DNA of 64,000 nucleotides from a virus (IMGVR_UViG_3300039191_000589:32001-96000), one strand, 5' to 3'; shown: positions 44,852 through 63,506, numbered from the stretch's first letter. The notes: generated from the letters alone by a model not told the origin. Translations and numbers: made by a program.

Positions 44852-45149
44852 TTATATTGATTGTGCTGGAATTCAAGATGCTATTTTAAATATTATTAAA
44901 CAATATAAAAGTATTTATGATTTTAATTTTGATATTAATCAAGATTTTATATCAGATACAACTAATATTGAAATTAAATTAAAAATAAGAGAATCAGAAT
45001 ATACAATGGATGTAATGAATTTAGGTAAGATAAATGAAAGAATATTTTCTAAATTAAAAAATATTTATAAATTTAATATTAAAATAATTATAGATTTTAA
45101 AAAGAAAAATGATTTTAAATATAAAACAGTTATATGGGAGTATCATTAA
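44841..45149 (+). CDS. Hypothetical protein
   Basis: Overlaps the fliN stop; ATG after GGTGA. Confidence 0.6.
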   Translation: MSTSYIDCAGIQDAILNIIKQYKSIYDFNFDINQDFISDTTNIEIKLKIRESEYTMDVMNLGKINERIFSKLKNIYKFNIKIIIDFKKKNDFKYKTVIWEYH

Positions 45150-45163
45150 GATACTCTTTTTTT
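45138..45163 (+). terminator. Intrinsic terminator
   Basis: GAGTATC-ATTAA-GATACTC plus T7. Confidence 0.75.
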
Positions 45164-45170
45164 ATTTAAA

Positions 45171-45210
45171 TGTTAAAAAAAATATTTGCTATATTTATAA
45201 TATTATATAG
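45171..45210 (+). promoter_or_regulatory. TGTTAAAAA-motif putative promoter
   Basis: Directly after terminator. Confidence 0.5.
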
Positions 45211-45247
45211 ATAAAACTAATAAACCAATAGGAGGATCAAATAATAT

Positions 45248-45532
45248 ATGTTTGCAAATGTAAATAAATATTATCCTAAATTTGATGATTATGAAATTAA
45301 TTTTAATAAAGTAAAAGAAGAAATAGATAAGCATTTTGAAAGGCACGATGATTGTGATGATATAGTTATTATTAATCAATTAGATTATATGATTAGTATT
45401 AAAGATAATGGTAAAGTAATATTCTTTTATGAGGATAATGTTGAATATGATATAATTAAAGAAAATGTTTTAAAAATTAAAAAATGTTTTACAAAATATA
45501 ATTCTGAATTTAATTACAAGAAAAACCCATAA
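45248..45532 (+). CDS. Hypothetical protein
   Basis: AGGAGG SD. Confidence 0.65.
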   Translation: MFANVNKYYPKFDDYEINFNKVKEEIDKHFERHDDCDDIVIINQLDYMISIKDNGKVIFFYEDNVEYDIIKENVLKIKKCFTKYNSEFNYKKNP

Positions 45533-45547
45533 GGAGGAATTTAATTA

Positions 45548-45781
45548 ATGACAAAAAAATTTAAAGATATGAAGAATAATAAAACAACGATTGAAATTGA
45601 AATTAAAATTGAAGGTGATCCAATAACAGTAGCTTTTGAAAAAGATCCAAATAAAAAATTTATTAAAATTAATTTTTTAGAAGCATTAGAAGATATAGTT
45701 GATACTAAAATGCTAGAAAAATCACAAATAATAAAAAATAACCAACAATTAAAAATTACTTATGATAGAAAATATTGTTAA
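45548..45781 (+). CDS. Hypothetical protein
   Basis: AAGGAGG SD. Confidence 0.65.
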   Translation: MTKKFKDMKNNKTTIEIEIKIEGDPITVAFEKDPNKKFIKINFLEALEDIVDTKMLEKSQIIKNNQQLKITYDRKYC

Positions 45782-45799
45782 CTAAAGAGGAGGATTATA

Positions 45800-46675
45800 A
45801 TGAAGATTCAAAGTTTATCAATTGATGTTCCAGCATCTTGTCCAAATGATTGTCGTTTTTGTGTTGCACATATGCATCGTGAAGATTATATAAATCACAT
45901 TGAAGATAATCATAGATTTAGACATCTTTATAAAGATGACTATAAAAAAAGATTATTATTTGCTAAAGATAATGGATGTAATACTATTGTTCTCACAGGT
46001 AATGGAGAGCCTTTAGCAAATCGTAATTTTCTTCAAAATTTTGCTGAATGGAATTCTAATTTACCTGACCCTTTTTATTGGATAGAATTACAAACATCAG
46101 GTGTTTTATTAGATGATGAATATTTAAGATTTTTAAGAAATGAAATAGGGGTTAGTACTATTAGTTTATCTTTATCAAGCATTTTTAATAGTGATAAAAA
46201 CGCAGAATATAATCAAACACCACAAAAATTAAAAGTTGATATTGATGAAATATGTAGTGAAATTAAAAGGTATGATTTTAATTTAAGGCTTTCACTAAAT
46301 ATGACTGATGTATATAATAACGTTCCTGTTAAAGAAATTTTTAATAGAGCTAAAGAATTAAAAGCTGATCAAATTACTTTTCGAGAATTATATATATCTA
46401 ATAAAAATAGTAATTGCAAACAAAATAAATGGATAAAAAAACATCGTTGTAATCCTGAAAAAATTGTTGAAATTGAAAAGTATATTGAAGATAATGGTAT
46501 TGAATTACAAATTCTTCCTTTTGGTGCTATTAAATATTCTGTTCATAATATATCTACTGTATTAGATATTGATTGTATGTCAACTCAAGTAAAAGATGTG
46601 GTAAAATATTTAATATTAAGACCTAATGGTAAATTATATAGTTCTTGGGCAGATAAAGGTAGTTTAATTTTTTAA
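45800..46675 (+). CDS. Radical SAM protein
   Basis: CPNDCRFC (CxxxCxxC), LTGNGEPL, IELQTSG. Confidence 0.88.
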   Translation: MKIQSLSIDVPASCPNDCRFCVAHMHREDYINHIEDNHRFRHLYKDDYKKRLLFAKDNGCNTIVLTGNGEPLANRNFLQNFAEWNSNLPDPFYWIELQTSGVLLDDEYLRFLRNEIGVSTISLSLSSIFNSDKNAEYNQTPQKLKVDIDEICSEIKRYDFNLRLSLNMTDVYNNVPVKEIFNRAKELKADQITFRELYISNKNSNCKQNKWIKKHRCNPEKIVEIEKYIEDNGIELQILPFGAIKYSVHNISTVLDIDCMSTQVKDVVKYLILRPNGKLYSSWADKGSLIF

Positions 46676-46693
46676 TAAAAAGGAGAGAAAAAA

Positions 46694-47467
46694 ATGATAG
46701 AAAGAATAGATAGTGGAGATATTGATGATGGAGGGGTTAAAGAAAATGACTTAGATAAAGAAATTATAAAAAATGATCATATTAATATTAATGCTAATAT
46801 TGATATAGATAAAATTAATATACCTAAAGGATTATATTTGGAAAATGTTTCAATAATAAAATATGGTTTTGCTTCAGCAATAGATGGTTATTCTTATATT
46901 TCAAATAGATATTTACCATACCCTTTAGAAGTAAGTAAAATACATTTTGCTGTGGAACCGAAAAATAATTGTCGAAATGTAAGGGTTTATGATAATCTTA
47001 ATTTATTTAATAATTTAAGGGAAACTTTTAATGGATTTGATTATAGTAATATGATAACTTCTCAACCTAATAATCCTAATGCTACAGTTGGAATAGATAA
47101 TAAATTAAATAATTTCTCATTACCAAATGAAAGTGATACATATAATATAGTAATTTCAATTTATAATTCAAATGGTGAAATTGTAACTTCGGTAGGAACT
47201 ATAGTTGATCATAGTTATAATAATTTAAAAAATAGAAAGTATACAATAGATATTTCACCTCTAATATTAATGCCTGATATTTATTATTTTTTAATAAATA
47301 TAACTGATAAAAGTTTTAAACTTGTATGTTCAAAGGATAAAAAATTAGATTTATTACCTAATACAGGTGTTTATCCTACTGTTGATTTAAATGTTCCTAA
47401 TCAATTAGATTTCACTTTAATAGAAGATTTTTATGTAAAACAACCTTGGATATTATTAACTAATTAG
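46694..47467 (+). CDS. Hypothetical protein, possibly virion-associated
   Basis: AAGGAG SD; beta-rich. Confidence 0.6.
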   Translation: MIERIDSGDIDDGGVKENDLDKEIIKNDHININANIDIDKINIPKGLYLENVSIIKYGFASAIDGYSYISNRYLPYPLEVSKIHFAVEPKNNCRNVRVYDNLNLFNNLRETFNGFDYSNMITSQPNNPNATVGIDNKLNNFSLPNESDTYNIVISIYNSNGEIVTSVGTIVDHSYNNLKNRKYTIDISPLILMPDIYYFLINITDKSFKLVCSKDKKLDLLPNTGVYPTVDLNVPNQLDFTLIEDFYVKQPWILLTN

Positions 47468-47478
47468 AAGGTGATAAA

Positions 47479-47832
47479 ATGGATGATAATCAAATTAAAA
47501 AACAATTAAAAGAAAATAATCAGTTATTAGAAAAATTATTACAAAAACAAGATACTTTATTAAAAACTTTAAATAATCAACAAAGTATTATTACTAATAT
47601 GGGAAATATTATTGATAGACAGTCTCAGTTATTAAATCAAATGCATAGACAATCACAACAAAATTCTAAAAAAATATCTGATATGGAAATTATGAATAGT
47701 AATATAAGTAATACTATCAATGATTTAAATCAATTTAATAATACTTTTCAAAGACAATTACAAGTTATTGAGCAAAAAATTGATAATATAAAAATTTATA
47801 AAGTACCAGAAGGACAACAACAATATTTTTAA
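47479..47832 (+). CDS. Q/N-rich coiled-coil protein
   Basis: Heptad L/I periodicity. Confidence 0.6.
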   Translation: MDDNQIKKQLKENNQLLEKLLQKQDTLLKTLNNQQSIITNMGNIIDRQSQLLNQMHRQSQQNSKKISDMEIMNSNISNTINDLNQFNNTFQRQLQVIEQKIDNIKIYKVPEGQQQYF

Positions 47833-47849
47833 GATAAGGAGGAAAAATA

Positions 47850-48518
47850 ATGGCAGGGTGGGGAGAATTAATTTTTGGATCAATGTATAGTGGTAAATCT
47901 GAGGAATTAATTAGAAGATTAAAAAGAGCTCAATATGGTGGTCAACAATATAAATTATTTAAACCAGAATTAGATAATAGATATAGTAATAATAAAGTTG
48001 TTACTCATGAAAATAATGATATTACACAAAATGTAAATGATGTTTTAGAATCACATTTAGATAGTAAAGTAAAGAAACATTTAGTACAAAGAATAACTGA
48101 AAATTTATCAGGATCATTAGTAGCACATTCAGTAAAAAATGCTGAGGAAATTTTAGATTTAACTAGGGATAATATTGATGTTGTTGGCATAGATGAAGTT
48201 CAATTTTTTGATGAAGATTTAATTAAAGTAATTGATAAACTAATAAAAAAAGATATTAGAGTAATTATGGCTGGATTAGATTTATACTCTTCTGAAGAAC
48301 CTTTTGGTATTGTTCCTAAATTAGCTTGTAAAACAAAATATGTTGATAAATTACATGCTGTATGTGTTGATTGTGGAGAAAATGCTTACATTTCTCATAA
48401 AATTGATAATAATAATGATAATAAAAAATCTAATATAGATGTGGGAAGTACTGGAAAATATATTCCATTATGTAAAACATGTAGAGAAAAGAGATTAAAA
48501 AATGAAAAGACTACTTAA
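47850..48518 (+). CDS. tdk: Thymidine kinase (type II)
   Basis: GSMYSGKSEELIRR, FKP.LDNRY, IDEVQFF, AGLD, KLHAVC..CG, Y.PLCKTC. Confidence 0.93.
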   Translation: MAGWGELIFGSMYSGKSEELIRRLKRAQYGGQQYKLFKPELDNRYSNNKVVTHENNDITQNVNDVLESHLDSKVKKHLVQRITENLSGSLVAHSVKNAEEILDLTRDNIDVVGIDEVQFFDEDLIKVIDKLIKKDIRVIMAGLDLYSSEEPFGIVPKLACKTKYVDKLHAVCVDCGENAYISHKIDNNNDNKKSNIDVGSTGKYIPLCKTCREKRLKNEKTT

Positions 48519-48990
48519 AAATTGTTCAACAAAATGGTATCATTTAACTAATAATTCTAATTTTAACCCTTCACAATCATATAATAATAACCAACAAGAA
48601 TTTGGTTCAGGATTATATATTACTCCTGAACATGATGTAAAAACATGGGATAATTTATTAAATAGAGAATGGGCATTTCCAATAGATATTTCTCAATTAA
48701 ATATTATTAATGAAAGTGATTTTCCTTCAAAACATAAAATGGTTAATGACATATTAGATTCAGGATATACTAAAAAAGATGTAAAAAATATGCAACCTAG
48801 TAATACTTTTAATAGAGATCCAATGGATATTGCTACTAAAAGATTATGGGCCCAAATAAATGGATATGATGCTGTAAAACCTTTTTTAGATAAACAAGAA
48901 GGAGAACAAATAGTAATCTTTAATTTATCTAAAATATCTATTGATGACCCTTTAAAAACTGATGAAGTTAGAAAAAATATTAAGGAGTGA
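48502..48990 (+). CDS. ADP-ribosyltransferase-fold-like protein with MKRLLKN leader variant
   Basis: WYHLT...F...FGSGLYIT...GYDAV...EQIVIF pattern. Confidence 0.55.
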   Translation: MKRLLKNCSTKWYHLTNNSNFNPSQSYNNNQQEFGSGLYITPEHDVKTWDNLLNREWAFPIDISQLNIINESDFPSKHKMVNDILDSGYTKKDVKNMQPSNTFNRDPMDIATKRLWAQINGYDAVKPFLDKQEGEQIVIFNLSKISIDDPLKTDEVRKNIKE

Positions 48991-48994
48991 TTAA

Positions 48995-49390
48995 ATGAAT
49001 ATTGGTTTTATAGGTTATAGTGCAAGTAAATTTGATAGTGATAAAGCTTATAAAATTATTAGAAATATTTTTAAAAATAAAATTGACCCTTTAGATAAGG
49101 ATATAAAAATAGTTTCAGGAGCTACGAATTTAGGAATTCCTAAAATAGTATATGAAATTGCAGATAAAAAAAATTATTATACTATTGGAATAATGTGTTC
49201 TAAGGGGTTTAATTATGAAATGTTTGATGTTAATAAATTATATGTCGAAGGTAATGAATGGGGAGAAGAAAGTGAATTATTTTTAGATACCATCGATATT
49301 CTTTTTAAAGTTGGTGGCGGAGAACAATCTAAAAAAGAATTAAATAAAGCTAAAAAAAGAGGAATTAAAACATTTGAATATGATTTATAA
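48995..49390 (+). CDS. SLOG-superfamily protein
   Basis: IGFIGYS, IVSGATNLGIP, WGEESE.F, VGGGEQS..E. Confidence 0.65.
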   Translation: MNIGFIGYSASKFDSDKAYKIIRNIFKNKIDPLDKDIKIVSGATNLGIPKIVYEIADKKNYYTIGIMCSKGFNYEMFDVNKLYVEGNEWGEESELFLDTIDILFKVGGGEQSKKELNKAKKRGIKTFEYDL

Positions 49391-49415
49391 TAACCACATT
49401 TGTGGTTATTTTTTT
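49389..49415 (+). terminator. Intrinsic terminator
   Basis: AATAACCACA-TT-TGTGGTTATT plus T-run. Confidence 0.8.
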
Positions 49416-49434
49416 ATTTTTTATTAAAAAAATA

Positions 49435-49463
49435 TTTACAAAATAAAATTTACATGATATAAT
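49435..49463 (+). promoter_or_regulatory. Sigma-A-type promoter with extended -10
   Basis: TTTACA-17 nt-TATAAT with TG. Confidence 0.75.
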
Positions 49464-49493
49464 ATTATTGTAACATAAAAAGGAGGAGATAAT

Positions 49494-49949
49494 ATGAAAT
49501 TTGATGATTTAATTAATAATGTTATTGAATATCCTAACGAAGAATTATTAAATGGAATTGAAAATAATACTATGTATCGTTATGTATCAAATTTCTTTGT
49601 TAATGGAATAATTAATTATGTAGATATTTATTATGCAATTACTATTAAAAGGTATGTAGGTGGGTGTAAATTAAATTTTGATACTACCATAACTAATGAA
49701 TTGGACCAACAAGGAAGATACCATACTGAATATAATAAATTATCAGATGATGTTTTAGTTTTAGCAGGAACTGAAAATGAATTGTGGATGTTTTGGTCAG
49801 ATCGTGATGTAAGTGATTGTAAAATTTTTAGGACTAATAAAGATATTACAAAAGAACAATTTAAGAAATTATTTATTAATTGGATTAAAGAAAAAGGCTA
49901 TGATCATTATTATGAATTACCCATTCCAAATGGATGGTGTAAAATATAA
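49494..49949 (+). CDS. Hypothetical protein (monocistronic, early-type promoter)
   Basis: AAGGAGG SD; own promoter and terminator. Confidence 0.7.
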   Translation: MKFDDLINNVIEYPNEELLNGIENNTMYRYVSNFFVNGIINYVDIYYAITIKRYVGGCKLNFDTTITNELDQQGRYHTEYNKLSDDVLVLAGTENELWMFWSDRDVSDCKIFRTNKDITKEQFKKLFINWIKEKGYDHYYELPIPNGWCKI

Positions 49950-49987
49950 TATATAATAATAAGGTATAAACTATAAAATAACCATTT

Positions 49988-50018
49988 AAGATCACCCAAT
50001 AAAGGGTGGTCTTTTTTT
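49988..50018 (+). terminator. Intrinsic terminator
   Basis: AAGATCACCC-AATAAA-GGGTGGTCTT plus T-run. Confidence 0.8.
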
Positions 50019-50137
50019 ATTATAGGGAGGTTATTTAAAAAAAATTTAAATTTTAGTAATAAATTAGTAATAATTAAGAAACAATCGAATAGATATATAC
50101 TAAATAAGGTAAAAAAATGAAAAGAGGTGTTAAAAAA

Positions 50138-50452
50138 GTGTTTTGTGAAGATTGTTTGGTTAATGTTATTATTCCTAAGTTAAAAGATAATGATTTGCTT
50201 ATCATGGAATACTTATACAATCATGGAATTACACTTCCCCAAACAAGTAAAATGCAAGATGAAATCATTGAAGAAACTGGATTATCAAATTTTAAAGGAT
50301 GGAAAGCTGTATATAGTTTAAGATGTTATAATTTAGTTAAAAAAATTCAAAAAGGCCGTGCAAATTATTATTACCTAACAAAAGATGGTAAAAGAGCATT
50401 GAGCATTTTTTCTGAGCAAATTGCTAATGAGCATGCTGAACAAGAGGTTTAA
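50138..50452 (+). CDS. Winged-helix DNA-binding protein (TubR-like)
   Basis: EIIEETGLS...AVYSL...LVKK.QKGRANYYYLTKDG wHTH pattern; upstream of tubulin; GTG start after AGAGGTG. Confidence 0.7.
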   Translation: MFCEDCLVNVIIPKLKDNDLLIMEYLYNHGITLPQTSKMQDEIIEETGLSNFKGWKAVYSLRCYNLVKKIQKGRANYYYLTKDGKRALSIFSEQIANEHAEQEV

Positions 50453-50490
50453 TAATTTATTTTAATAAATCATTTAAGGAGGAAGATAAT

Positions 50491-51687
50491 ATGCTTAAAT
50501 TTGGAATGTTGTGCTTAGGTCAAGGTGGAGGAAATATTGGTGAATATGCTTATACGAAGAACTTTGAGGTGGTAGTAGCTAATACTGCTAAAGTGGATTT
50601 AAAACAGTTAAAGTATATTCCTGAAAATGATCGTATTCATTTAGGTGGACATGGTGCTGGTAGAGATAGACAAGTTGGTGTTGATGCTTTTATTGAAAAT
50701 GCTGAAGAAATTTATGAAAAATGCCTTAATAAGTTTGAAGATTGTGATGCTGTATTTGCCGTTGGAACTGGTGGAGGTGGTACTGGATCAGGAGCATTAC
50801 CTGCAGCACTTGAAATGTTATCTAGTACATTTAAATATGTAGGCTGTATAATTGGATTACCAGCTAAAAATGAAGCACCTAGGGCCCAAATGAACACTGT
50901 AGAATGCTTTTCAGAATTATCTCAATTAAATGAATTAGGATCAGTATTTATTGTAGATAATGAGGAAACAAAAAAGATGAACCCTAATACTTCACGGAGA
51001 GATATTTATCGACTTACTAATCGCCGACTTATAGATTGTCTTAACGAACTTAATCAATTAACGGATAAAATGTCTTATGTTGACAATTTTGATGCTAATG
51101 ATTTATTAAGTATTATTCAAGAACGTGGCTATACTCATATCACTAAAACTAGTTATTATCCTACCAATAGTGAAAATAAATATAATATTTCTGAGAAAAT
51201 TAGAAAAAGTTGGGAAAAAAGCTATCAACCTAAATTTGATCTTAGCACTGTTGTAAAAGGAGCTTTAATTGGGATAATCCCTGAAGAAATATCTATTGAA
51301 GTTGAAAGTGATTTAATCTTTAAGGATAATGGTCTCCCTTATGATTTCAAAGATATATATTTTCGTCCTAATCCTAATGAATTAGAAAAAAAGGCTGGCA
51401 AATCTAAAAATACCTTTTATACTTTATTGTCTGGATTAAAGTTTCCTCAGTCTAGATTGGATCAAATTAAAAATGATATTAATAAGGTTGAAGATAAGTT
51501 AGTTAATAATTATAAAAATTCAGTAAACCAAAAAATTAAAAGTCAAAGTTATAATAGTAAATTTTCCCAAAGTGGATCCCCAATGTCTCATAAATTAAAC
51601 AATTTAAGATCAAATAATAATAATGATGATGGAAAAAAGAAAAAAATGAACGTAATGGATCAACTATCAAAATATCGTGAAAAATAA
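50491..51687 (+). CDS. Tubulin/FtsZ-family GTPase (TubZ/RepX-like)
   Basis: LGQGGGNI, GAGRD, GGGTGSG signature, VDNE, NFDAND (T7-like). Confidence 0.9.
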   Translation: MLKFGMLCLGQGGGNIGEYAYTKNFEVVVANTAKVDLKQLKYIPENDRIHLGGHGAGRDRQVGVDAFIENAEEIYEKCLNKFEDCDAVFAVGTGGGGTGSGALPAALEMLSSTFKYVGCIIGLPAKNEAPRAQMNTVECFSELSQLNELGSVFIVDNEETKKMNPNTSRRDIYRLTNRRLIDCLNELNQLTDKMSYVDNFDANDLLSIIQERGYTHITKTSYYPTNSENKYNISEKIRKSWEKSYQPKFDLSTVVKGALIGIIPEEISIEVESDLIFKDNGLPYDFKDIYFRPNPNELEKKAGKSKNTFYTLLSGLKFPQSRLDQIKNDINKVEDKLVNNYKNSVNQKIKSQSYNSKFSQSGSPMSHKLNNLRSNNNNDDGKKKKMNVMDQLSKYREK

Positions 51688-51721
51688 AGTAGAAAAGGGG
51701 GTATAATCCCCCTTTTTACTT
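51688..51721 (+). terminator. Intrinsic terminator after tubulin gene
   Basis: AGTAGAAAAGGGGG-TATAAT-CCCCCTTTTTACT. Confidence 0.8.
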
Positions 51722-51771
51722 AATAAGTATTAAATAAATATTGGCTAAAAATTAACAACGGAGGTTGTATT

Positions 51772-52188
51772 ATGAATCAGAAAAAAATAATTATAATTTT
51801 ATTATTATTGTGTTTATTTGTAAATTGTTCAATTGCATTAGGTAATAATGGAAATAATAAAAAAACTAATAATAAACAACAATCTAAAATCAGTATTCCT
51901 GATTCTGTTCCAGATGAATATATTGATGAATATATTAGACAGTCTAAAGCCCTTAGAAAAGCAATTGATTATCTTGATTTTATTGTTGAGTTAATTCGTT
52001 TAGCTGCCGCTGCTTATTTAGGACTACATGTAACAATTATAGGTTATCAAATTTACCGTTTAGATAATGGAATAGAACATTCTAAACAAAATTTTAAAAA
52101 AGCTGCTTATGGCTTATTCTTTGTATTTTGGGGCCAAGCATTGGCAAATTGGTTTATGGCAAAATTATTTGATATACTTTTTGGATAG
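51772..52188 (+). CDS. VirB2/TrbC-like pilin
   Basis: Signal-peptide-like N-terminus; two hydrophobic helices split by a basic loop (SKQNFKKAAYG). Confidence 0.65.
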   Translation: MNQKKIIIILLLLCLFVNCSIALGNNGNNKKTNNKQQSKISIPDSVPDEYIDEYIRQSKALRKAIDYLDFIVELIRLAAAAYLGLHVTIIGYQIYRLDNGIEHSKQNFKKAAYGLFFVFWGQALANWFMAKLFDILFG

Positions 52189-52200
52189 GAGGCGGCAGTA

Positions 52201-52353
52201 ATGCTTAACAATTGGGATGAGTTATTATATGAAATCTCAACTATTCTTTTTGGATTATGTTGTGGGCTAATGGGGTTTGTTGTAACTTATTATTTATTAG
52301 GTTGGATAGGTGATTTTATCATAAAAGTAATTTTAAGGGGGTTACTAACATGA
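52201..52353 (+). CDS. 50-aa membrane micro-protein, not in ORF track
   Basis: AGGAGG SD; MLNNWDELLYEISTILFGLCCGLMGFVVTYYLLGWIGDFIIKVILRGLLT*. Confidence 0.7.
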   Translation: MLNNWDELLYEISTILFGLCCGLMGFVVTYYLLGWIGDFIIKVILRGLLT

Positions 52354-52475
52354 TTTTTAATATTTTAAGAATTACTTTCTCTTTTACAGTGGGAGTTTAT
52401 TGTTTTCAATTTGCAATTAAAAAATTTCATAATTTTTTTAGAAGTAATAGGGATGAACACTATAAAATTTATTAA
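52350..52475 (+). CDS. 41-aa membrane micro-protein, not in ORF track
   Basis: ATGA overlap with the previous ORF, AGGGGG SD; MIFNILRITFSFTVGVYCFQFAIKK... Confidence 0.6.
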   Translation: MIFNILRITFSFTVGVYCFQFAIKKFHNFFRSNRDEHYKIY

Positions 52476-52490
52476 AGAGAGGGGTTAAAT

Positions 52491-53399
52491 ATGCCTGATA
52501 AAGCATTAAAATTATTAGAAAAAATATCAGGAGTGTTAGATAAATTTTGGACATTTATTACTAACATTCCTGAAAAAGCTTATGATTCTTTAGCTTATAT
52601 TATGAAAGAAATGGTTGATTTATTAATTAAATTTCCTAGAATTACATCATTTCCTGAAATTATTGAAGTGTGGCAAGTAGTATTAGTATTATCACTATCT
52701 ATGTTAGGATTAGTATTTATTTATATAGCAGTGCGTAATAGAATATCTTTGAATAGTAATATTATTAGATCAATTGAAATCAAACAAGTTATTGCTAGAA
52801 CTTTTTATATGGGCTTTTTCATTATTTTGAGTAGAACCTTTGTAGATTGGCTTATTATGTTAAACAATGTATTAATTAATGTATTAATGCATCATTTTGA
52901 TATTCGAAAAGTAATAGATCACATTGGTAATTCTCATTTTGGGAAAGATATAATAGCAACCGCAATAATAGGGTATCAAATATACCTAGTTGTGTGGATT
53001 ATGATTCAATATTGGTTAAGAGTTACGGAAGTATTAGTGATGTATGTTTCTAGCCCTGTTATGTATTTATTATGGGTTAATCCAGAGTGGGGAGGGTACT
53101 TATCTAGCTGGTTAAAACGAATTAGCTCATTAATTTTTACACAATTAGCTCAAATACTAATATTAATTATTCATGGGCATTTAGTTTTTAAATTTTTTGT
53201 TTCAGGATCAATTTCAAGTTTAGCTTTAGGGGTAGCTGGATTAATTTTAATGAAAAAAACTCCAGCCTTTTTTAAAATGTTTATTGCCCAAACAAATTCA
53301 TTGCAAATTATGACGGGGACTTATGATAAAATTTCTAATTCTAATACTGTTAAAAAAATTAAAAATAAAATGTCAGGGGGTAATGATGACGATGAGTAA
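52491..53399 (+). CDS. VirB6/TrbL-like polytopic membrane protein
   Basis: Five to six hydrophobic segments; R.TE...Y.SSP...LW...WLK pattern; operon context. Confidence 0.7.
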   Translation: MPDKALKLLEKISGVLDKFWTFITNIPEKAYDSLAYIMKEMVDLLIKFPRITSFPEIIEVWQVVLVLSLSMLGLVFIYIAVRNRISLNSNIIRSIEIKQVIARTFYMGFFIILSRTFVDWLIMLNNVLINVLMHHFDIRKVIDHIGNSHFGKDIIATAIIGYQIYLVVWIMIQYWLRVTEVLVMYVSSPVMYLLWVNPEWGGYLSSWLKRISSLIFTQLAQILILIIHGHLVFKFFVSGSISSLALGVAGLILMKKTPAFFKMFIAQTNSLQIMTGTYDKISNSNTVKKIKNKMSGGNDDDE

Positions 53400-53685
53400 A
53401 GATAAATTATCAACTTGGATTCCGCGAAATTTAAATGAGGAAGATAAAATTGATTTAGGTTTTGGTATTAAATTAACTTGGTCCAATTTACCTTTAATTC
53501 TAGGAGGAGGAACAATGGGGTATCTTTTATCTACAAAATACAATGATTTCTTAATGAAAACAGCAATTATTTTAATGTGTGTAGTTCCTCCTTATGTATT
53601 TTGGAAAATAGCTCTTAATGAACAGAATCCAATTGATGTAATGTGGAATATGATAATTTTTATAAGAAAATTATTAAGGGGGTAA
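53323..53685 (+). CDS. PrgI/VirB3-like membrane protein (true start probably 53386-53392)
   Basis: IPRNLNEEDKI..G..LTW followed by two transmembrane helices; directly upstream of virB4. Confidence 0.7.
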   Translation: MIKFLILILLKKLKIKCQGVMMTMSKDKLSTWIPRNLNEEDKIDLGFGIKLTWSNLPLILGGGTMGYLLSTKYNDFLMKTAIILMCVVPPYVFWKIALNEQNPIDVMWNMIIFIRKLLRG

Positions 53686-53689
53686 TAAT

Positions 53690-55381
53690 ATGGTGACGGT
53701 TAATACTAATATTCATAATGGTAATCAAATTGGTATAATAGAAATTGAACCAACTAATATTTTAATGAAAGATGAAGATTATAAAATTCAAATAATGGAA
53801 AATTTCAAAAAACTAGTAAATTCAATTAATACTTCAATTCAAATATTGTGTAGCAGTGATAATTTTAGTAGTAATAAATTTAGTATTGAAGGGTATGACG
53901 AATATAATACTTTAATTAATAATAAAATTAATAACGTTGTAAAAAAGAAATTTAAAATAATAGTAAATAATGATGATGAGAGTATATTGAGAAATAATTT
54001 AAAGACTATTAAAAGACATTTAAAATCTTGTAGCATACAATGTAGCGATTATAAAATTACTACTTATGATAATATTTGTAGTGATGAATTAAATGTGGAC
54101 TATATGCAAATTAATGATCAATATGTTAAAACGTTTTATGTAACTGATTATCCTCATAGTTGTTCTTTTGGGTGGTTAAAAGATATATATAATAGTGAAT
54201 TAAATGTAGATATTAGTTTCTTTATTCATCCTGTATCAAAATCTGATGCTGAAGAATATTTAACAAAAAAATTAAATCAAAACACCTCTAATTCTTCATT
54301 AGAAGATGAAAAAGATGTAGTAAATGATAAATATGATGAACGAATTAATAGTGCCATTAAAATGAGAAAACAATTAAGAAAAAACAAATGTAAATTCTTT
54401 TTTACATCCTTTTATATAACATTAAAGGCTGATAATATCAACCAATTAAACCGCGAGAGTGAATATCTGAGGACATTAATGTCAGGTTTAAATGTTAATA
54501 TTAAAAATAGTTATTTACGCCAAGAGGATGCATATAAGTGCACTAGAGCCTTTGGGAGAGATGTATTAGAAAAATATTATAATTTAACTACTAAACAATT
54601 AGGGTGCTTTTTTCCATTTACCAATTCAAATATTATTGATAAGAAAGGAATATTGGTTGGGGATAATATTGTGAACTCCAGTTTGGTTTTTTTAGATCCT
54701 TTTAAATACGATTCTTATTTAATGTTTATCATTGGAAAAGTAGGTGGGGGAAAGAGTTATTTATCAAAATTATTATGTTTAAGATTACTACAAAAAGGAG
54801 TAAAAATTGATATTTTTGATAAAGAGGGGGAATATTTACAATTAAAAGAACTAACCAATTCACCAAATTTACGGGTTCATAATTATAATAATTATTCTGA
54901 TTACCTTCCTATGTTAGAAAGATATGTGTATGATATGGATAATAATAATGAATTACAAAAAAGGATGTTATTTATAGATGAATTTTGGCAATTTGTTGAT
55001 AACACTAATAAAGAATTTTTAGAGTATGTTAAATATATTACTCTTACTTCACGAAAAAAACATCAAGCATTATGTGCTATTAGCCAAGAAATAGAACATT
55101 TATTAGAAACCCCAGAAACTTATACTATTATAAAACAAGCAAGTATTAAAGCTCTTATGAAGTCAGAACCAAGTGAGGCTAGAATGATAAAAGAGGAATT
55201 AAATTTAACTGAGTCTGAGGTTAATTTTTTAATTTCCGCTGATAATGAAGGTTTATTATTAGCTGATAATAAACAGGTTCAATTTAAAGCTTTATCTACA
55301 GATAAAGAAGATAAAATTATTACTACTGATCCTTCACAAATTTTACAATTAAGAGAGGAGGGTAAACGTGGGATTATTTAA
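53690..55381 (+). CDS. virB4: VirB4-like ATPase
   Basis: GKVGGGKS Walker A, FDKEGEY, FIDEFW Walker B, SRK...ISQ; N-terminal IEPTN and YP...GWL motifs typical of Gram-positive VirB4. Confidence 0.82.
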   Translation: MVTVNTNIHNGNQIGIIEIEPTNILMKDEDYKIQIMENFKKLVNSINTSIQILCSSDNFSSNKFSIEGYDEYNTLINNKINNVVKKKFKIIVNNDDESILRNNLKTIKRHLKSCSIQCSDYKITTYDNICSDELNVDYMQINDQYVKTFYVTDYPHSCSFGWLKDIYNSELNVDISFFIHPVSKSDAEEYLTKKLNQNTSNSSLEDEKDVVNDKYDERINSAIKMRKQLRKNKCKFFFTSFYITLKADNINQLNRESEYLRTLMSGLNVNIKNSYLRQEDAYKCTRAFGRDVLEKYYNLTTKQLGCFFPFTNSNIIDKKGILVGDNIVNSSLVFLDPFKYDSYLMFIIGKVGGGKSYLSKLLCLRLLQKGVKIDIFDKEGEYLQLKELTNSPNLRVHNYNNYSDYLPMLERYVYDMDNNNELQKRMLFIDEFWQFVDNTNKEFLEYVKYITLTSRKKHQALCAISQEIEHLLETPETYTIIKQASIKALMKSEPSEARMIKEELNLTESEVNFLISADNEGLLLADNKQVQFKALSTDKEDKIITTDPSQILQLREEGKRGII

Positions 55382-57683
55382 TAATTTTAAACAACAAAAA
55401 GGAGAAAAATTTAATTCAGAGTGTTTTAAAATTAATTTTGATATTAACCGAAAATCAATTGAAGAATACCAAATGATGTTAAGTAATATCTATGGTTTAC
55501 AGTTTATTAATAAACATGAATATACCCCTAAATTTACTTTTGGAATTATTGTTGAAGAAGATCAATATGATTTTTATGCTGTTTGTCCTGAGGAATATAG
55601 TAATATCATTAAAGAACAACATAAGATAATACACCCACATATTAGATATTCTTCTTTTAATGACCCTCTGAAACAATTTGAAAATTATTTAAGTAATGGT
55701 AAAATGCATTATATTAGTGGATACAGGTTAATGTTAAATGATAATACTGATAAATCGATACAAACACCTAACAAATCAAGATTTTTATTAAATATTATAT
55801 CAAATATGATGGATGATAAATATAATGATAAAAGTATTTTTGAGATTACTTTTAAACCTATAAATAATAACAATAATATTAATAATAATAAAATATTAAA
55901 TACATTAGATACAACTGTAAAAGGATTAAGTTATGCTATGGATTTTTTCTTTAATAGTAATTTAAGTGATCCTTATAAGAATAAAGAGAAAACAAAGATT
56001 AAAGATAATAAAAAAGATAACAGCAATAAATTTACTGCAAAATTTAATGTTGATATAAAAATTATATGTAAATCTAAAAGTAAACAAAGATCTTTAGATA
56101 AAGTTAAAAGTGTTAGTGCATCATTTTCTAATCTTAATAAAAATTCTAAATTTAATGCTATTAAGTTAAAACATGATGATATTATTAATCGTCAATATAA
56201 TCATAAAAATATATTAACTGTTGAAGAAATTTCTCAATTTATGCATTTGCCTCATGATATAGGTGAAGAAAATTATACTAGACTATATGATGATAGAGTA
56301 CCAAGCAAAGGAATAGTATATGGTGATAGCAATGGTAAAGATGTAGCTTTTCCAATGGAAAAAATTAGCCCTGAAAATTATAGTAAAAAGTATAAAGAAA
56401 TAGAAAAATATATTGATGATTTTTCTAAACCATTAGTAATTACAGGGCGTCAAGGTAATGGTAAATCAGAATGGATAGTAAATTTAGCAATAGCTGTAGC
56501 AAAATGTGGGATTTCAGTAATCATAGTAGACCCTAAAGTAGATACTCAAAAAAGATTTATAGAGAGTTTACCTAAAAGTGAAATGGATAGGTTAGATTAT
56601 TTAAATTATGGTGATTTAAGGCATCCTCCAGCTATGAATTTATTTCGACAAAGAAAAGATAATGATCCTATAGAAAATTCATTAATTACATCATCTTTTA
56701 TTGCTTTAATGAAAAAACACTCACGCCACTGGGGATTTAAAATGCAAAGAATGCTCCAAAGAGCTTGTGAGGCTGTATTATTAAATCAAACAAGTACATT
56801 AAATGAATTAGATTTACTTTTAAATGATCCATTATTTAGAGAGCATATTATAGAAGTAATGGAAGGTAAACTAAATGATAATGATCAAAAAAATAAAGCC
56901 CATATAAGAAAATTATTAAGATATTGGAAAAAATTTCATAATGATGATCAAAAGGATATTGATAAAAAAATCGAACCAGCTATGAATGTTATTGGACCAT
57001 TTATAGATAATCAAATTATTAAGACAATAGTTGGCCAAGAAGAATGTTATGATTTTAGAGAAGCTGCTGATAATGGGAGAATAACTATTGTAAATATTCC
57101 AGAAGGTTCGTTAGAAGAAAATACTAAAATATTATCATCAATTATCAATAAAAGAATTTGGTTAGATATGCAATCACGAGCTGATAGTGAATTAAAGGAT
57201 CGTTATCCAACATTTTGGGTTATGGATGAAGCTCATGAAATTTTAGATGAGGAATTTACTGGTATATTAACAAAGGCACGTGCATATCGATTAGGAGTGG
57301 CATTAATTACACAAGGATTAACTAATTTTAGAAGTAGGGGAATGGATAATATGAAAGACTTAATAGAAACTAATTGTCAAAAGAAAATAACTTTTAATAT
57401 ATCATCGTCTGAAAGTAGGCAATTAGCTGAAGAATTTGCTCCTTTGACTCTTAAGGATTTATCTAATTGTCCTAAATATCATTTTTATGCTAAAACATTT
57501 TTAAAATCAGGGGAAATATCTGACCCATTTTTTGTTCACGCACCTTTACCAGCTAACAAAGAAAGGGATTATAATAAGTTTATTGAAAATCATAAAAAGG
57601 GGAGAAAAACAATGGAGGAAATTGAAATAGAGATTGAAGAGAGGATGGATCATATTAGAACAATGAATAAATTAAAGCAATAA
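55368..57683 (+). CDS. virD4: VirD4/TraG-like coupling ATPase
   Basis: GRQGNGKS, IVDPK, MDEAH, ARAYRLG...TQ; no evident N-terminal transmembrane segment. Confidence 0.75.
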   Translation: MGLFNNFKQQKGEKFNSECFKINFDINRKSIEEYQMMLSNIYGLQFINKHEYTPKFTFGIIVEEDQYDFYAVCPEEYSNIIKEQHKIIHPHIRYSSFNDPLKQFENYLSNGKMHYISGYRLMLNDNTDKSIQTPNKSRFLLNIISNMMDDKYNDKSIFEITFKPINNNNNINNNKILNTLDTTVKGLSYAMDFFFNSNLSDPYKNKEKTKIKDNKKDNSNKFTAKFNVDIKIICKSKSKQRSLDKVKSVSASFSNLNKNSKFNAIKLKHDDIINRQYNHKNILTVEEISQFMHLPHDIGEENYTRLYDDRVPSKGIVYGDSNGKDVAFPMEKISPENYSKKYKEIEKYIDDFSKPLVITGRQGNGKSEWIVNLAIAVAKCGISVIIVDPKVDTQKRFIESLPKSEMDRLDYLNYGDLRHPPAMNLFRQRKDNDPIENSLITSSFIALMKKHSRHWGFKMQRMLQRACEAVLLNQTSTLNELDLLLNDPLFREHIIEVMEGKLNDNDQKNKAHIRKLLRYWKKFHNDDQKDIDKKIEPAMNVIGPFIDNQIIKTIVGQEECYDFREAADNGRITIVNIPEGSLEENTKILSSIINKRIWLDMQSRADSELKDRYPTFWVMDEAHEILDEEFTGILTKARAYRLGVALITQGLTNFRSRGMDNMKDLIETNCQKKITFNISSSESRQLAEEFAPLTLKDLSNCPKYHFYAKTFLKSGEISDPFFVHAPLPANKERDYNKFIENHKKGRKTMEEIEIEIEERMDHIRTMNKLKQ

Positions 57684-57687
57684 TTAG

Positions 57688-57719
57688 TAACCAGCTTAGT
57701 GGCTGGTTATTTTTTTTTT
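57688..57719 (+). terminator. Intrinsic terminator closing the T4SS-like operon
   Basis: TAACCAGC-TTAGTG-GCTGGTTA plus T10. Confidence 0.85.
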
Positions 57720-57841
57720 AAAAAAAAATAGAAATAGTGTTATATTATTTAATATAAAAATTATATATTTTATAGAAGATAACATGATGTTGTGCTCTCT
57801 CAATAAAAATAGACAAAATATCAAAAGAAGGAGAGATTGAT

Positions 57842-58261
57842 GTGTATAGAATTAAGACTAAAGAGAATTTAAATTTATTAATTCAAGATATTGGGGTTAC
57901 CTTAAAAGCTGACACAGATACTTGGAGATATATTAATGAGGATGTGTTAGATAATTCCACAGATTTTAAGAATATTAAACATTTAGTTAATATAGAACAG
58001 ATAGATAGCCGGAAAGAAGAAGATATTCCTACTAATGATGAAGAAAATGAGGATGTTACTGAAGTAAATGAAGGGGCTTATGTAATTGATGGTGATTCAC
58101 CGAAAAACCCTGATGATGCTTTTGTAGCAAACCCTAATGAAGAAGGAAATCCCGTTACTGATGATACAATTGAAGAAAATGATGAAACTGATAATATTGA
58201 TAATAAAGAGACTGATAAAGATACAACTAAAGAAGAAAATAATGATAGTGAAGAAAATTAA
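57842..58261 (+). CDS. Hypothetical protein with acidic tail
   Basis: AAGGAG SD, GTG start. Confidence 0.65.
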   Translation: MYRIKTKENLNLLIQDIGVTLKADTDTWRYINEDVLDNSTDFKNIKHLVNIEQIDSRKEEDIPTNDEENEDVTEVNEGAYVIDGDSPKNPDDAFVANPNEEGNPVTDDTIEENDETDNIDNKETDKDTTKEENNDSEEN

Positions 58262-58276
58262 TAGGAGGTTAATCAT

Positions 58277-59239
58277 ATGTCTAAAAGATTAGGGTGGTTA
58301 GAAGAGTTTGCTCAACAGCAAGCTAAAAAAATGCAAAAACAAGCTAGTGTTGAAAATAAAGAAGCTACGACTGTAAAAGAAGGAGATAAAATTATTGTTG
58401 ATACTGATGTAGCACCTAAAGCTGATCAGGATGATGAAATAACTTATCAAAATAATCCATATAAAGTAGTGGATGCTGATTTTGAAGATGATCATGGTCC
58501 TGGTTTAGTATTAAGAGCATTATCTATCGAGGCTGATGAGGATGAAGATGATGATGTAGAAATTGAAGTTGAAGATGATGACGTTGATATAGATGATGTT
58601 GATTTCGGTGATTTAGAAGATGATCTTGATGAATTAGATAATTATGAAACTGAAGAAGTTGAAGTTGATGATACTGAAGATATTGAAATTGATGAATTAG
58701 GTCCTGAGGAAGATAATGAATTTTTAGACGAAGATTTAGAAGTAGTTGATGAAGAACCTGGTGATGATTTAGGTTTGGATGAAGACAATGAATTTATCGA
58801 TGAAGATTTAGAAGTTATTGATGAAGGGCCTACTGGTGACCAATTAGAAGATAATTGGACTGGTGATGTTGGTGAAGGTAAAGAAGATGCTCAAGAATAT
58901 GCCCGAAATAATCCTGGCCACCAATATCATATTGAAACTCAAGATAGAGATGTTAAGGATTTCAATGATGCTGCTGATAAAACTCAACAGCAAATTGAAG
59001 AAGAAAGAAATACTGATCGAACTACAGTAGATGGATATTATTCTCATAATAATATTTTAAATGATATTGTAGAAGAAGCTATAGATACTGAACAAGAAAC
59101 TAGTAAAATGGTAAATAAAACAATGGAAGAACCAAGTGAAGTTAATCAAGAACCAATAGGGCAAGATCCAGAAGATGAAGTTAAAACTGACAAAGGTTTA
59201 AATATTAGAAATACTGTTTTAGATAATATATTAAATTAA
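58277..59239 (+). CDS. Highly acidic protein, distant paralog of 22509..23825
   Basis: YARNNPG motif; duplicated EDNEF(L/I)DEDLEV(V/I)DE. Confidence 0.7.
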   Translation: MSKRLGWLEEFAQQQAKKMQKQASVENKEATTVKEGDKIIVDTDVAPKADQDDEITYQNNPYKVVDADFEDDHGPGLVLRALSIEADEDEDDDVEIEVEDDDVDIDDVDFGDLEDDLDELDNYETEEVEVDDTEDIEIDELGPEEDNEFLDEDLEVVDEEPGDDLGLDEDNEFIDEDLEVIDEGPTGDQLEDNWTGDVGEGKEDAQEYARNNPGHQYHIETQDRDVKDFNDAADKTQQQIEEERNTDRTTVDGYYSHNNILNDIVEEAIDTEQETSKMVNKTMEEPSEVNQEPIGQDPEDEVKTDKGLNIRNTVLDNILN

Positions 59240-59300
59240 AAGGTATTTAAAAATAAATCGGTAAAATTATAAAATAAAATTTGTAGGGAGGATTTTAATA

Positions 59301-59843
59301 ATGAAAAAAAGAGCTAAATTAAATAAAAAAGTATTAAGTTTAGGTAAGAAAGTTGCAAAGGCTGTTGAATTAGAAACTGAGGAGATTTTACAGGATGCTG
59401 AGGAACTTATTAAAAAACACGTTCCAGCACGATATGTAAAAAAAGCATTAGCAAAATTAGAAAATAAAATTGATTCTGAAGGTATAGAGGCTTTATTTGA
59501 TAAAGCAGTAACACGTGAAGCTCTTAGAAAAACAGCAGATAAAACTGCTTCTGCTGAAGAAATTAATGAGGCACTTGATACATTTGCTGACGCTATTGTA
59601 GCGGAAATGGAAGAAGTATTAGAACATGCTGATAATTATATGACTAATAAAGTTAAAACAGCTAAAAGTGAGAAACTCCAATATGAAATTGAATCAAAAT
59701 TAAAGAAAACAGTTGAGGCTAAATTAAAAGAAAAAGGTATTTATTCTAAATTTTCTAGAGTTGTTGAAAAGCCTAAAACTAAAAATACAGAAGCACAAAA
59801 GAAAGAAGCTAATTCTTTCTTAGAAAAAATGAAACAATTATAA
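59301..59843 (+). CDS. Helical K/E/A-rich protein with internal duplication and several KTA/KVA sites
   Basis: AVELETEEILQDAE / AIVAEMEEVLEHAD repeat. Confidence 0.65.
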   Translation: MKKRAKLNKKVLSLGKKVAKAVELETEEILQDAEELIKKHVPARYVKKALAKLENKIDSEGIEALFDKAVTREALRKTADKTASAEEINEALDTFADAIVAEMEEVLEHADNYMTNKVKTAKSEKLQYEIESKLKKTVEAKLKEKGIYSKFSRVVEKPKTKNTEAQKKEANSFLEKMKQL

Positions 59844-59863
59844 TATAAAATTAATTTTTAATC

Positions 59864-59899
59864 AGAACAGGGGACCAAATTATTGGTCCTCTGTTTTTT
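59864..59899 (+). terminator. Intrinsic terminator
   Basis: AGAACAGGGGACCAA-ATTA-TTGGTCCTCTGTTTT. Confidence 0.8.
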
Positions 59900-59935
59900 A
59901 TTTTATAATTGATATTTAATTAGGAGGTGTATTTA

Positions 59936-61087
59936 ATGGATAAATTAAATAATTTATATCATAGAGGAGACAGCGTATTTTTATATATTAAATTTAAACC
60001 ACAAAATGATAATGAGAATATAGAAACTATAGAAAATGCTGAAGTAAGAATATTACAAGATCAAGGTGAAACTATTAAAGAAATATTAAAATGGACAAAA
60101 ATGGATAATCTTAGTGAAGATGAATATTATTATAATTATCAAATACCTTATGATGGCGATATTGGTGAATACCAAGTAATATATAATGGTAATGTAAATG
60201 GTAAAACTGCTCATATAGTAAAAACATTTCATGTAATTCCTAATTCTGAAAAATATGAAAATGCTATTAAATTATATGGTTATGCTTATGATTTTAGAAC
60301 TGATAATCCTTTGGTTGATGTATCATTAAAATTAAAAAATAGAAATAATAATGAAATTGTTTATCAAAGTTTAACTAATCAAGATGGATATTGGGAGGCT
60401 TATGTTTATCCTAATGAATATGAATTTATTTTTAGCAAAGAAGGGTTTGATGATAGAAAAGTAGCTGCTCAAATTGGAAATGAATCTAATGAAATTCAAT
60501 TTAATAATATTAGTTTAAAACCAATTAATGCTGAAAAAAAAGGGAATGGAATGTATGAAATATCTGATCAATATGTTACTAAAAAAGGAACTCCTTTAAG
60601 TGGATTAAAAGTAGAAATTGCTAATATTTTTGATCCTAAAACTATCATAGCTAAAGATGCTACTGATGATAATGGTGAATGGATTTGCTATTTAGATCCA
60701 GGTGATTATTTAATTAATGTTCAAGGAGAATCAATGGGGATTACATTTGATAAAACAATTAAAGTTAAAATAGATGATGAAGGTGAATATGATTTTGTTG
60801 ATTTATCTAATAATGTTGCAGTTGCAAGTAATTCTGAGTATATAGGTCGAGGAGATGGAGAAATAACAGTAACTGATAAAGTTCAAAATAAACAGGGTGA
60901 TGGAATTATTGATGTTCAAATAAATGCTTTTAATAAAGGGGATAAATTAATAGAGGAAAATATTATTGCTCGTGATTATACAAACACTAATGGTGAATGG
61001 ACATTAAAATTAGACCCAGGTAAATATATAATAGAATTTTATCATCCTAATTTCAAAACAATTACCAATGAACGCATAGTAGAATAG
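59936..61087 (+). CDS. Virion protein with three prealbumin/carboxypeptidase-regulatory-like beta-sandwich repeats
   Basis: TNQDGYW...PNEY, TDDNGEW...LDPGDY, TNTNGEW...LDPGKY. Confidence 0.7.
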   Translation: MDKLNNLYHRGDSVFLYIKFKPQNDNENIETIENAEVRILQDQGETIKEILKWTKMDNLSEDEYYYNYQIPYDGDIGEYQVIYNGNVNGKTAHIVKTFHVIPNSEKYENAIKLYGYAYDFRTDNPLVDVSLKLKNRNNNEIVYQSLTNQDGYWEAYVYPNEYEFIFSKEGFDDRKVAAQIGNESNEIQFNNISLKPINAEKKGNGMYEISDQYVTKKGTPLSGLKVEIANIFDPKTIIAKDATDDNGEWICYLDPGDYLINVQGESMGITFDKTIKVKIDDEGEYDFVDLSNNVAVASNSEYIGRGDGEITVTDKVQNKQGDGIIDVQINAFNKGDKLIEENIIARDYTNTNGEWTLKLDPGKYIIEFYHPNFKTITNERIVE

Positions 61088-61191
61088 TTTTTTTGATATA
61101 TTTAAAAGTTAATTGATTGCTTATTAAAAAGTATATAAAAAATAGAAGTACAATTGATTAATATCCTAAAAAATAAAGAGGTGAATTGTAT

Positions 61192-63393: not shown

Positions 63394-63418
63394 TAATAAA
63401 TAATAAAAATATTTAATC

Positions 63419-63448
63419 AATCCCCTGTGGCATCACAGGGGATTATTT
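63419..63448 (+). terminator. Intrinsic terminator
   Basis: AATCCCCTGTG-GCAT-CACAGGGGATT. Confidence 0.8.
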
Positions 63449-63480
63449 AATTCTAATTAAATAATTAAAATATTTTCTAT

Positions 63481-63506
63481 ATATACTAGGATTAATCCTA
63501 GTATAT
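63481..63506. repeat. Perfect 26-bp palindrome
   Basis: ATATACTAGGATTAATCCTAGTATAT. Confidence 0.85.

Follow-up and report, generated by a model that had tools for sequence, protein, structure and literature searches.

We analysed an operon of seven genes in a 64,000-nucleotide stretch of phage DNA (the window), taken from one IMG/VR virus record of 110,097 bp, of which it comprises bases 32001-96000 (IMGVR_UViG_3300039191_000589; linear class, without terminal repeat). Judged by homology, the seven genes are a reduced core of a Gram-positive-type type IV secretion system (T4SS), a type of module first reported as a phage 'DNA translocation operon', and they are the local copy of an ancestral, selected module of the megaphage lineage of Bacillus phage G. 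We propose, with a probability of about 0.5, that the operon encodes a DNA translocon serving a step independent of virions. The module has already been partly noted in the literature (in phage G, 0305phi8-36 and SPP1); the window adds its most divergent and an unusually reduced member. A prediction made earlier from the sequence alone (the original prediction) had offered two readings of the region, a phage-plasmid that may spread from cell to cell without virions or, alternatively, a repurposed machine for DNA or protein translocation, and it is the alternative that fits and is supported by homology.

The block (50117-57711) is organised as two terminator-bounded units on the + strand, a TubR-TubZ pair followed by the seven-gene operon. 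Terminator-like hairpins on the same strand lie at the end of the upstream gene, which is the left edge of the TubRZ unit (49988-50013; 10-bp stem and T run), at the boundary between TubZ and the secretion operon (51697-51711; from inspection of the sequence) and at the operon end (57686-57711; 11-bp stem, then a T run). The region contains 8 terminator-like sites, compared with 2.1 +/- 1.5 in shuffled sequence. A GGAGG ribosome-binding site precedes the first ATG of the operon (51772), and the intergenic spacings are 12, -4, 15, -17 (with the ATG at 53383), 4 and -14 nt; the genes are judged to be tightly coupled because of these gaps (12 to -17 nt). No minus-strand open reading frame (ORF) longer than 65 amino acids (aa) underlies the block, and an Rfam search of 44000-64000 gave no match. 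The ORF calls, the gaps and the hairpins bear out the ORF list and the terminator-coupled operon layout that had been predicted.

The same operon is present in cultured Bacillus phage G (JN638751, gp150-156), with the same gene sizes and with the pilin-like protein, the micro-proteins, the VirB6-like and VirB3-like proteins, VirB4 and the DUF8128-coupling-like ATPase following one another as in the window. Alignment-based scans, which were needed to find relatives, recovered it from three uncultured contigs as well (IMG/VR contigs of 175 kb and 156 kb and a metagenomic contig of 476 kb, referred to below by their loci L003, L004 and L006); a single-protein scan of viral contigs and a megablast search of the block against phage records gave no match, and a profile of the ATPase found no relative among 185,579 bacterial species, each represented by one genome. 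The window operon proteins are 28-40% identical to those of the relatives (28% for the VirB6-like protein, 32% for VirB4 and 40% for the second ATPase in the comparison with phage G). The four relatives are 54-76% identical to each other across the operon genes, so the window is the most divergent member. Nucleotide-binding motifs are intact in the operon ATPases across the five phage genomes. Downstream of the operon, all five share genes for a small protein (p139), a gp159-like acidic protein and a gp160-like protein; the synteny check proposed with the original prediction thus shows both operon and flanks to be conserved.

The predicted energy source of the system is a VirB4-family ATPase of 563 aa (53690-55381, + strand) with Walker A (GGGKS) and Walker B (IDE) motifs. 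It matches the Thermoanaerobacter VirB4 structure (PDB 4ag5) at 2e-10 as a single sequence and at 1e-25 with a 13-sequence profile; the same profile matches TrwK at 1e-7 and HerA at just 1e-6. The original prediction would have been undone by a grouping of its ATPases with HerA/FtsK, and for this protein the grouping is clearly with VirB4. Matches to NCBIfam (VirB4_plasma, 6.5e-47; CD1110 family, 4.5e-41; both below the equivalog cut-offs) agree with the call, and the nearest families are conjugative (CD1110, from Clostridioides elements, and the Mbov_0397 family of integrative and conjugative elements, ICEs). An exhaustive search returned 2766 proteins at E<=1e-3, comprising about ten close relatives, a clear gap and then thousands of others; sampled proteins from this search bear TraG P-loop/AAA_10 domains. 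Identity to phage G gp155 and the copies in related contigs is 32-36%. The PHROGs label of the window protein, 'terminase large subunit' (phrog_2666, 1e-63), was rejected, the true terminase being encoded at 9959-11611; the label of phrog_2666 itself seems mistaken, with a risk of misleading the automated annotation of phages.

The membrane components were assigned through the relatives, to which the window proteins are linked by BLASTP at 2e-8 to 4e-44, and on this basis the pilin-, VirB6- and PrgI-like identities originally proposed hold. The first gene (51772-52188, + strand) encodes a VirB2/T4SS-pilin-like protein of 138 aa with a signal-peptide-like N-terminus and two hydrophobic helices (hydropathy peaks at residues 6, 72 and 115). 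Its own score against Pfam T4SS_pilin is just 0.098; it finds its L003 and L006 homologues at 2e-8 (BLASTP), and these match T4SS_pilin at 1e-5 to 1.5e-4 and TrbC at 2e-3, the best scores among the relatives' homologues being 3.7e-6 (T4SS_pilin) and 6e-4 (TrbC). Micro-protein 1 (50 aa; 52201-52353, + strand) has one clear transmembrane helix (hydropathy 2.1) and shares a CG..GF..TY helix motif with its homologues, phage G gp151 (0.002) and the L003 copy (1.7e-4). Micro-protein 2 (41 aa; 52350-52475, + strand), whose gene overlaps the end of the preceding one by 4 nt, has a weakly hydrophobic N-terminus (peak 1.55) and a basic tail; it matches 47-51-aa ORFs of L003, L004 and L006 in position and build, a sequence search with it gave no significant match, and it is the least certain gene of the operon. 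Both had been described as membrane micro-proteins, a description that suits the 50-aa product and is marginal for the 41-aa product.

A TrbL/VirB6-like polytopic membrane protein of 302 aa (52491-53399, + strand) with at least five hydrophobic segments follows. It matches its four relatives at 6e-32 to 4e-44 (BLASTP), and these relatives match Pfam TrbL_4 (5.6e-12); the window copy itself has no Pfam match. ESM Atlas groups it with TrbL/VirB6 clusters (score 0.94, TM 0.73). A word-index search with the protein returned only itself, and an AF2 model built from a 5-row alignment (pLDDT 48.8) was too poor for a structure search. The PrgI/VirB3-like small membrane protein (~100 aa; 53383-53685, longest ORF from 53323, + strand) scores 0.078 against Pfam PrgI, compared with 2.4e-5 for the relatives, and matches phage G gp154 at 3e-5 (BLASTP). 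Its gene stops 4 nt 5' of the VirB4 start, an arrangement as in known systems.

The last gene of the operon encodes a second ATPase of 771 aa (55368-57683, + strand), composed of an N-terminal DUF8128 domain (residues ~1-335) and a coupling-protein-like P-loop motor with a helical insert (~434-555). The assignment to DUF8128 (PF26449) comes from the precomputed domains of homologues and from ESM Atlas, and both Walker A and Walker B motifs are present. Hydropathy gave no N-terminal membrane segment; the sole hydrophobic peak (369-387) comes directly after Walker A and is read as part of the P-loop core, and the protein is for this reason judged to be anchor-less. The 'MsbA-like permease' annotation of phage G gp156 in GenBank was rejected; its homologue in the window has no membrane segment. 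The motor matches Pfam TrwB_AAD_bind and TraG-D_C at ~1e-3 and NCBIfam SXT_TraD at 2.6e-6; a broadened profile search ranks DotL first (2.7e-5), with TrwB at 2.6e-3, and two bridging homologues have clear coupling-protein domains. In profile-profile comparison, the end of the N-domain and the Walker A region align to VirB4 (E 4e-6), and the fold matches are tied among coupling proteins, VirB4 and HerA. 'DUF8128 plus coupling-protein-like ATPase' is a defensible name, one that leans weakly to the coupling proteins on sequence grounds. The original call, VirD4-like without an obvious anchor, is right about the anchor and weak on VirD4 identity (SXT_TraD 2.6e-6, DotL 2.7e-5); the separation from HerA/FtsK that is clear for VirB4 is here a weak lean to coupling proteins, with folds tied to VirB4 and HerA. 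Large Clostridium plasmids carry a distant relative of this ATPase only (24% identity over 60% of its length), beside a TrbC/VirB2 gene, and do not carry the cassette of the window.

The unit upstream of the operon encodes a TubR-like winged-helix protein of 111 aa (50117-50452, + strand; Pfam S10_plectin 6.6e-7, above cut-off) and a TubZ-type tubulin GTPase of 398 aa (50491-51687, + strand; Pfam Tubulin 6.4e-14). A winged-helix gene had been predicted upstream of the tubulin; the gene is there, with its start at 50117 rather than 50138. Homologues of the window TubR lie immediately 5' of TubZ in phage G and at loci L008 and L010 (1e-13 to 9e-18). Among solved structures, TubZ best matches RepX/TubZ of pXO1 (PDB 4ei7; 2.3e-21 over residues 2-336) and next the TubZ of phage c-st (9e-15); its identity to the copies from phage G and related contigs is 39-45%. 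The pair is common to the window, phage G and two IMG/VR contigs, and a thymidine kinase gene, also upstream of the operon, is common to the window and phage G. The TubZRC type III partition systems (pBtoxis, pXO1 RepX, Clostridium phage c-st) are similar in that a small winged-helix gene precedes TubZ; they differ in that no convincing iterons were found upstream of the window pair and the cultured member of this lineage is not known to lysogenise. A search for centromere-like (tubC) iterons in 49300-52300 and 44000-64000 gave no convincing array, just AT-rich low-score repeats.

TubR-TubZ is a separate unit, ancestrally near the operon, that probably positions phage DNA. In the three searchable relatives it lies on the same strand, 5-15 kb upstream of the operon; TubZ abuts the operon in the window because the intervening genes are missing there, and the adjacency to which the original prediction drew attention is secondary, arising from the loss of this 5-15 kb. 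The genes found in between are one for a 743-aa VWA-domain protein (L004 2048-4279; also in L006) or one for an AAA ATPase (L003 1593-2702), neither of which is present in the window. In phage G, an intact TubR-TubZ pair (78380-79816; L009 1183-2619) lies just before gp139 and has no matching coding sequence in the examined portion of the GenBank feature table; it is consistent with the unnumbered 'ps43' of a published re-analysis (PMC12484599).

The setting of the operon is that of a virion-forming phage, as had been predicted: genes for a large terminase (9959-11611), a portal (24477-27527) and two helicases are present, nearly all genes of the window lie on the + strand, and the block has the same GC content and composition as the remainder of the contig. 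GC content of the record is 24.7%. The window is assigned to a phage-G-like megaphage, probably of a low-GC host, because its portal is 46% identical to that of Bacillus phage G over 92% of the length. CheckV estimates the 110-kb record to be ~26% complete, with about three quarters of the genome unseen; the absence of a relaxase or an integrase can therefore be claimed for the locus and this fragment rather than for the whole phage, and all absences given here have that scope.

Two genes of the relatives lie outside the set kept in the window. All four (phage G, L003, L004, L006) have a 270-aa Replic_Relax gene just upstream of the operon on the opposite strand (Pfam 4e-25 to 6e-22), which is MOBC-type relaxase-like; the phage G copy, gp146, is annotated as similar to SPO1 27.3. 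A PhageMetallopep-family gene (putative metallopeptidase; gp149 in phage G) opens the operon in each of the four, and no counterpart was found in the 110-kb contig. With the divergent Replic_Relax gene and the 5-15 kb gap between TubZ and the operon, these genes set phage G and the other three relatives apart from the window. The original prediction had recognised no relaxase, wall hydrolase or VirB8-like gene in the block and had suggested a wider search for relaxase and replication-relaxation genes; its observation stands, since model searches of the contig were negative as well. PF13814 and the family profile gave nothing in the 110 kb, nor did PF03432, PF02486 and PF03389 (MOBQ/V-type, Rep_trans and MobA/MobL models). 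No match was found to TcpC (PF12642), the only VirB8 model run, and the operon ORFs are otherwise assigned or shorter than 51 aa. The contig contains no M23 peptidase, and no operon ORF is left over as a candidate wall hydrolase (SLT, CHAP and NlpC/P60 models were not run). A search of the contig for tyrosine integrases, which did not extend to the serine recombinase families, was negative and upholds for this fragment the earlier remark that no integrase is nearby; flanking direct repeats of the att type were limited to AT-rich chance matches. The ORF at 49494-49949, a candidate relative of the helix-turn-helix part of gp146 (E 0.26), was rejected, as neither the relaxase-family profile nor Pfam supports it.

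Textbook Gram-positive conjugative systems include pCF10 Prg/Pcf, ICEBs1 Con and pCW3 Tcp, and mating of this type depends in addition on a VirB8-like scaffold and a wall hydrolase. The window has their VirB4, TrbL/VirB6, PrgI/VirB3 and T4SS pilin-like genes in the usual order; it differs in that no VirB8-like protein, wall hydrolase or relaxase was found, its VirB4, at 563 aa, is short, a soluble DUF8128 domain replaces transmembrane helices in the coupling-like ATPase, and the carrier is a virion-forming megaphage. The archaeal Ced system (CedA, CedA1, CedA2, CedB), which imports DNA and works without a relaxase, has a similarly reduced part list, and the comparison is by part list only; unlike the window operon it is archaeal, DNA-importing and has a single ATPase.

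In phages, a 'DNA translocation operon' is known from the lytic phage 0305phi8-36, and homologues of it were described in SPO1 and further Bacillus phages (Pathria et al. 2012, PMC3357382). That operon consists of a MobC-like relaxase, a VirD4-like ATPase without transmembrane (TM) segments, a VirB6-like protein and an MreB-like protein, and its deletion caused no growth defect (PMC3357382). Compared by description only, 0305phi8-36 (a Bacillus thuringiensis phage) resembles the window in its TM-less VirD4-like ATPase, its VirB6-like protein and a cytoskeletal gene nearby, and it is lytic on a spore-forming host, with an operon dispensable in culture; it differs in having the MobC-like relaxase and an actin-fold (MreB-like) protein, and homologues of VirB4, VirB3 and VirB2 are unreported. 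The window thus has the TM-less coupling-like ATPase and the VirB6-like protein of phage translocation operons, in a virion-forming phage, and no adjacent MobC/Replic_Relax-type gene. In SPP1, gp31.1, gp31.2 and gp32 were proposed to form a non-essential translocon (Godinho et al. 2018, PMC6316719). The likeness of gp31, gp31.1, gp31.2 and gp32, again by description only, is an anchor-less ATPase resembling TrwB, VirB4 and FtsK beside small membrane proteins; the set is far smaller, the phage is of 44 kb and no VirB4/VirB6/VirB3 trio is reported. A 2025 re-analysis of phage G described gp155 as TraC-like and gp156 as TraD-like, found both absent from the virion proteome, called their function in phages 'entirely unknown' and noted that in 50 years no lysogeny had been observed (PMC12484599). 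The module is not mentioned in the searched passages of a large comparative jumbo-phage study.

On our proposal, the VirB6-, VirB3- and VirB2-like proteins and the micro-proteins would assemble during infection into a channel through the cytoplasmic membrane of the host, and VirB4 would energise it. The anchor-less ATPase would dock via partner proteins, feed substrate into the channel and, with VirB4, drive DNA through it. The substrate would most probably be phage DNA, and in the relatives its processing would fall to the adjacent Replic_Relax nuclease; DNA is taken to be the substrate there because the Replic_Relax gene adjoins the operon. Translocation would be a virion-independent step, important in nature and not in laboratory culture. 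The destination would most likely be a compartment separated mainly by a membrane, such as a sister cell at the septum or a forespore, rather than a free neighbour, since the operon offers no part able to cut or span a thick wall.

Several observations weigh against this proposal. In the window phage itself, DNA processing cannot be argued for, as no counterpart of the Replic_Relax gene was found in the 110-kb contig by tblastn, six-frame profile search or PF13814. The sequence tie of the 771-aa ATPase to coupling proteins is weak, and by predicted fold the protein is not separable from VirB4, HerA or DndH. Its best match in defence libraries is PADLOC mad8, a component of the MADS system (1.1e-13, in the motor domain), which outscores every conjugation model for this motor. 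This similarity may reflect the common family of HerA/coupling-protein-like ATPases; we took it as general P-loop motor similarity. The substrate, direction and timing of the channel are all predictions, and the septum or forespore as destination is speculation drawn solely from the missing parts and from the Bacillota range of the known carriers.

Four other explanations were considered. That the block is of foreign origin, whether inserted as an ICE or plasmid or created by mis-assembly of phage and conjugative-element DNA, is suggested by the unusual presence of conjugation-type genes in a phage, and it is effectively refuted: the same operon and flanking phage genes occur in the finished phage G genome and in three independent contigs. 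With this shared synteny in four independent assemblies, no tyrosine integrase, no flanking repeats beyond chance and a GC content matching the contig, the block is neither a chimera nor a recent ICE, two of the three outcomes that the original prediction had named as fatal to it. A function in protein or effector secretion or in envelope remodelling would have the system export phage proteins or block rival DNA, without moving phage DNA; superinfection exclusion and interference with host competence or ICE transfer are variants. Type IV systems include protein-only exporters, the window version has no detectable relaxase in 110 kb, and the proteins are non-virion in phage G and dispensable in culture in 0305phi8-36 and SPP1. 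We nevertheless consider this function unlikely, as Replic_Relax adjoins the operon in 4/4 relatives, the operon contains no conserved candidate effector and the nearest VirB4 families (CD1110, Mbov_0397 ICE) are conjugative.

The favourite of the original prediction, a plasmid prophage partitioned by TubRZ that moves its genome to neighbours by mating, without virions, is a little less probable still. It would account for the near-complete inner-membrane T4SS core, the pilin-like protein with its signal peptide and the Replic_Relax gene of the relatives; the window TubZ is nearest to those of plasmids and plasmid prophages (pXO1 RepX, c-st), the L003 contig is labelled 'provirus' by IMG/VR, and propagation by translocation was proposed by Pathria et al. 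(PMC3357382). It is countered by the absence from the contig of a relaxase, VirB8-like protein or M23 peptidase and the lack of an operon ORF that could serve as wall hydrolase, so that the parts for crossing the wall are missing; no relative was found among the 185,579 species, the genome to be transferred would be ~400-500 kb, and phage G has the same TubRZ and module with lysogeny never observed. No positive support for such spread was obtained. Import of DNA as in Ced, in which an early channel pulls in the rest of a long genome after partial ejection or takes up environmental DNA for nucleotides, we regard as distinctly improbable. The part list is similar (VirB6-like, small membrane and pilin-like proteins, VirB4-like ATPase, no relaxase needed) and the carriers include the largest known phage genomes; related modules in the 44-kb SPP1 and in SPO1, however, do not fit a problem of long genomes, and the relaxase-like nuclease of the relatives is typical of donors.

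A bolder extension of the translocon proposal, to which we give a low chance, is that phage-G-like megaphages would have a second, virion-independent route for their 400-500 kb genomes, in which a TubR/TubZ filament delivers DNA to the type-IV-type translocon and across the membrane into an adjoining cell or forespore. If true, such a phage could spread or persist where very large particles cannot diffuse or adsorb. Conjugation machines and virions are usually seen as alternative modes of travel for DNA, and here the lineage of the largest phages keeps a conjugation core under selection. The parts always kept are the VirB2-, VirB6-, VirB3- and VirB4-like proteins and the DUF8128-coupling-like ATPase, with TubRZ nearby; the window shows that the relaxase-like gene and the metallopeptidase can be absent from the locus. 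This list of kept and missing parts narrows what any mechanism must explain, and its value is mainly comparative. Cultured phage G would be the system of choice for studying virion-independent DNA movement.

A few further features of the lineage were recorded. IMG/VR classifies the 175-kb phage-G-like contig of L003 (G002) as 'provirus'; if it truly has host flanks, the lineage would here give its first sign of integration, and a classifier artefact is equally possible. The gap from the second ATPase to the next conserved gene is 158 bp in the window and variable in the relatives (12400-14250 in L003, L004 and L006), containing an HNH endonuclease gene in phage G (L002 12474-12890) and, in others, an ORF of 257 aa or one of 114 aa on the minus strand. 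Beyond it, 58277-59239 and 59301-59843 represent the N-terminal and C-terminal portions of phage G gp159; the window and L004 have this gene in split form, the other three (phage G, L003, L006) as a single one. The 58277-59239 product is extremely acidic and starts MSKRL, and the gene contains a 72-bp tandem repeat (58690-58826). The product of 59927-61087 is 40% identical to phage G gp160 and has three transthyretin/Ig-like domains (CarboxypepD_reg 1.8e-17, SdrD_B, SpaA); it probably serves as a decoration or fibre of the virion, which would mark the return to structural genes.

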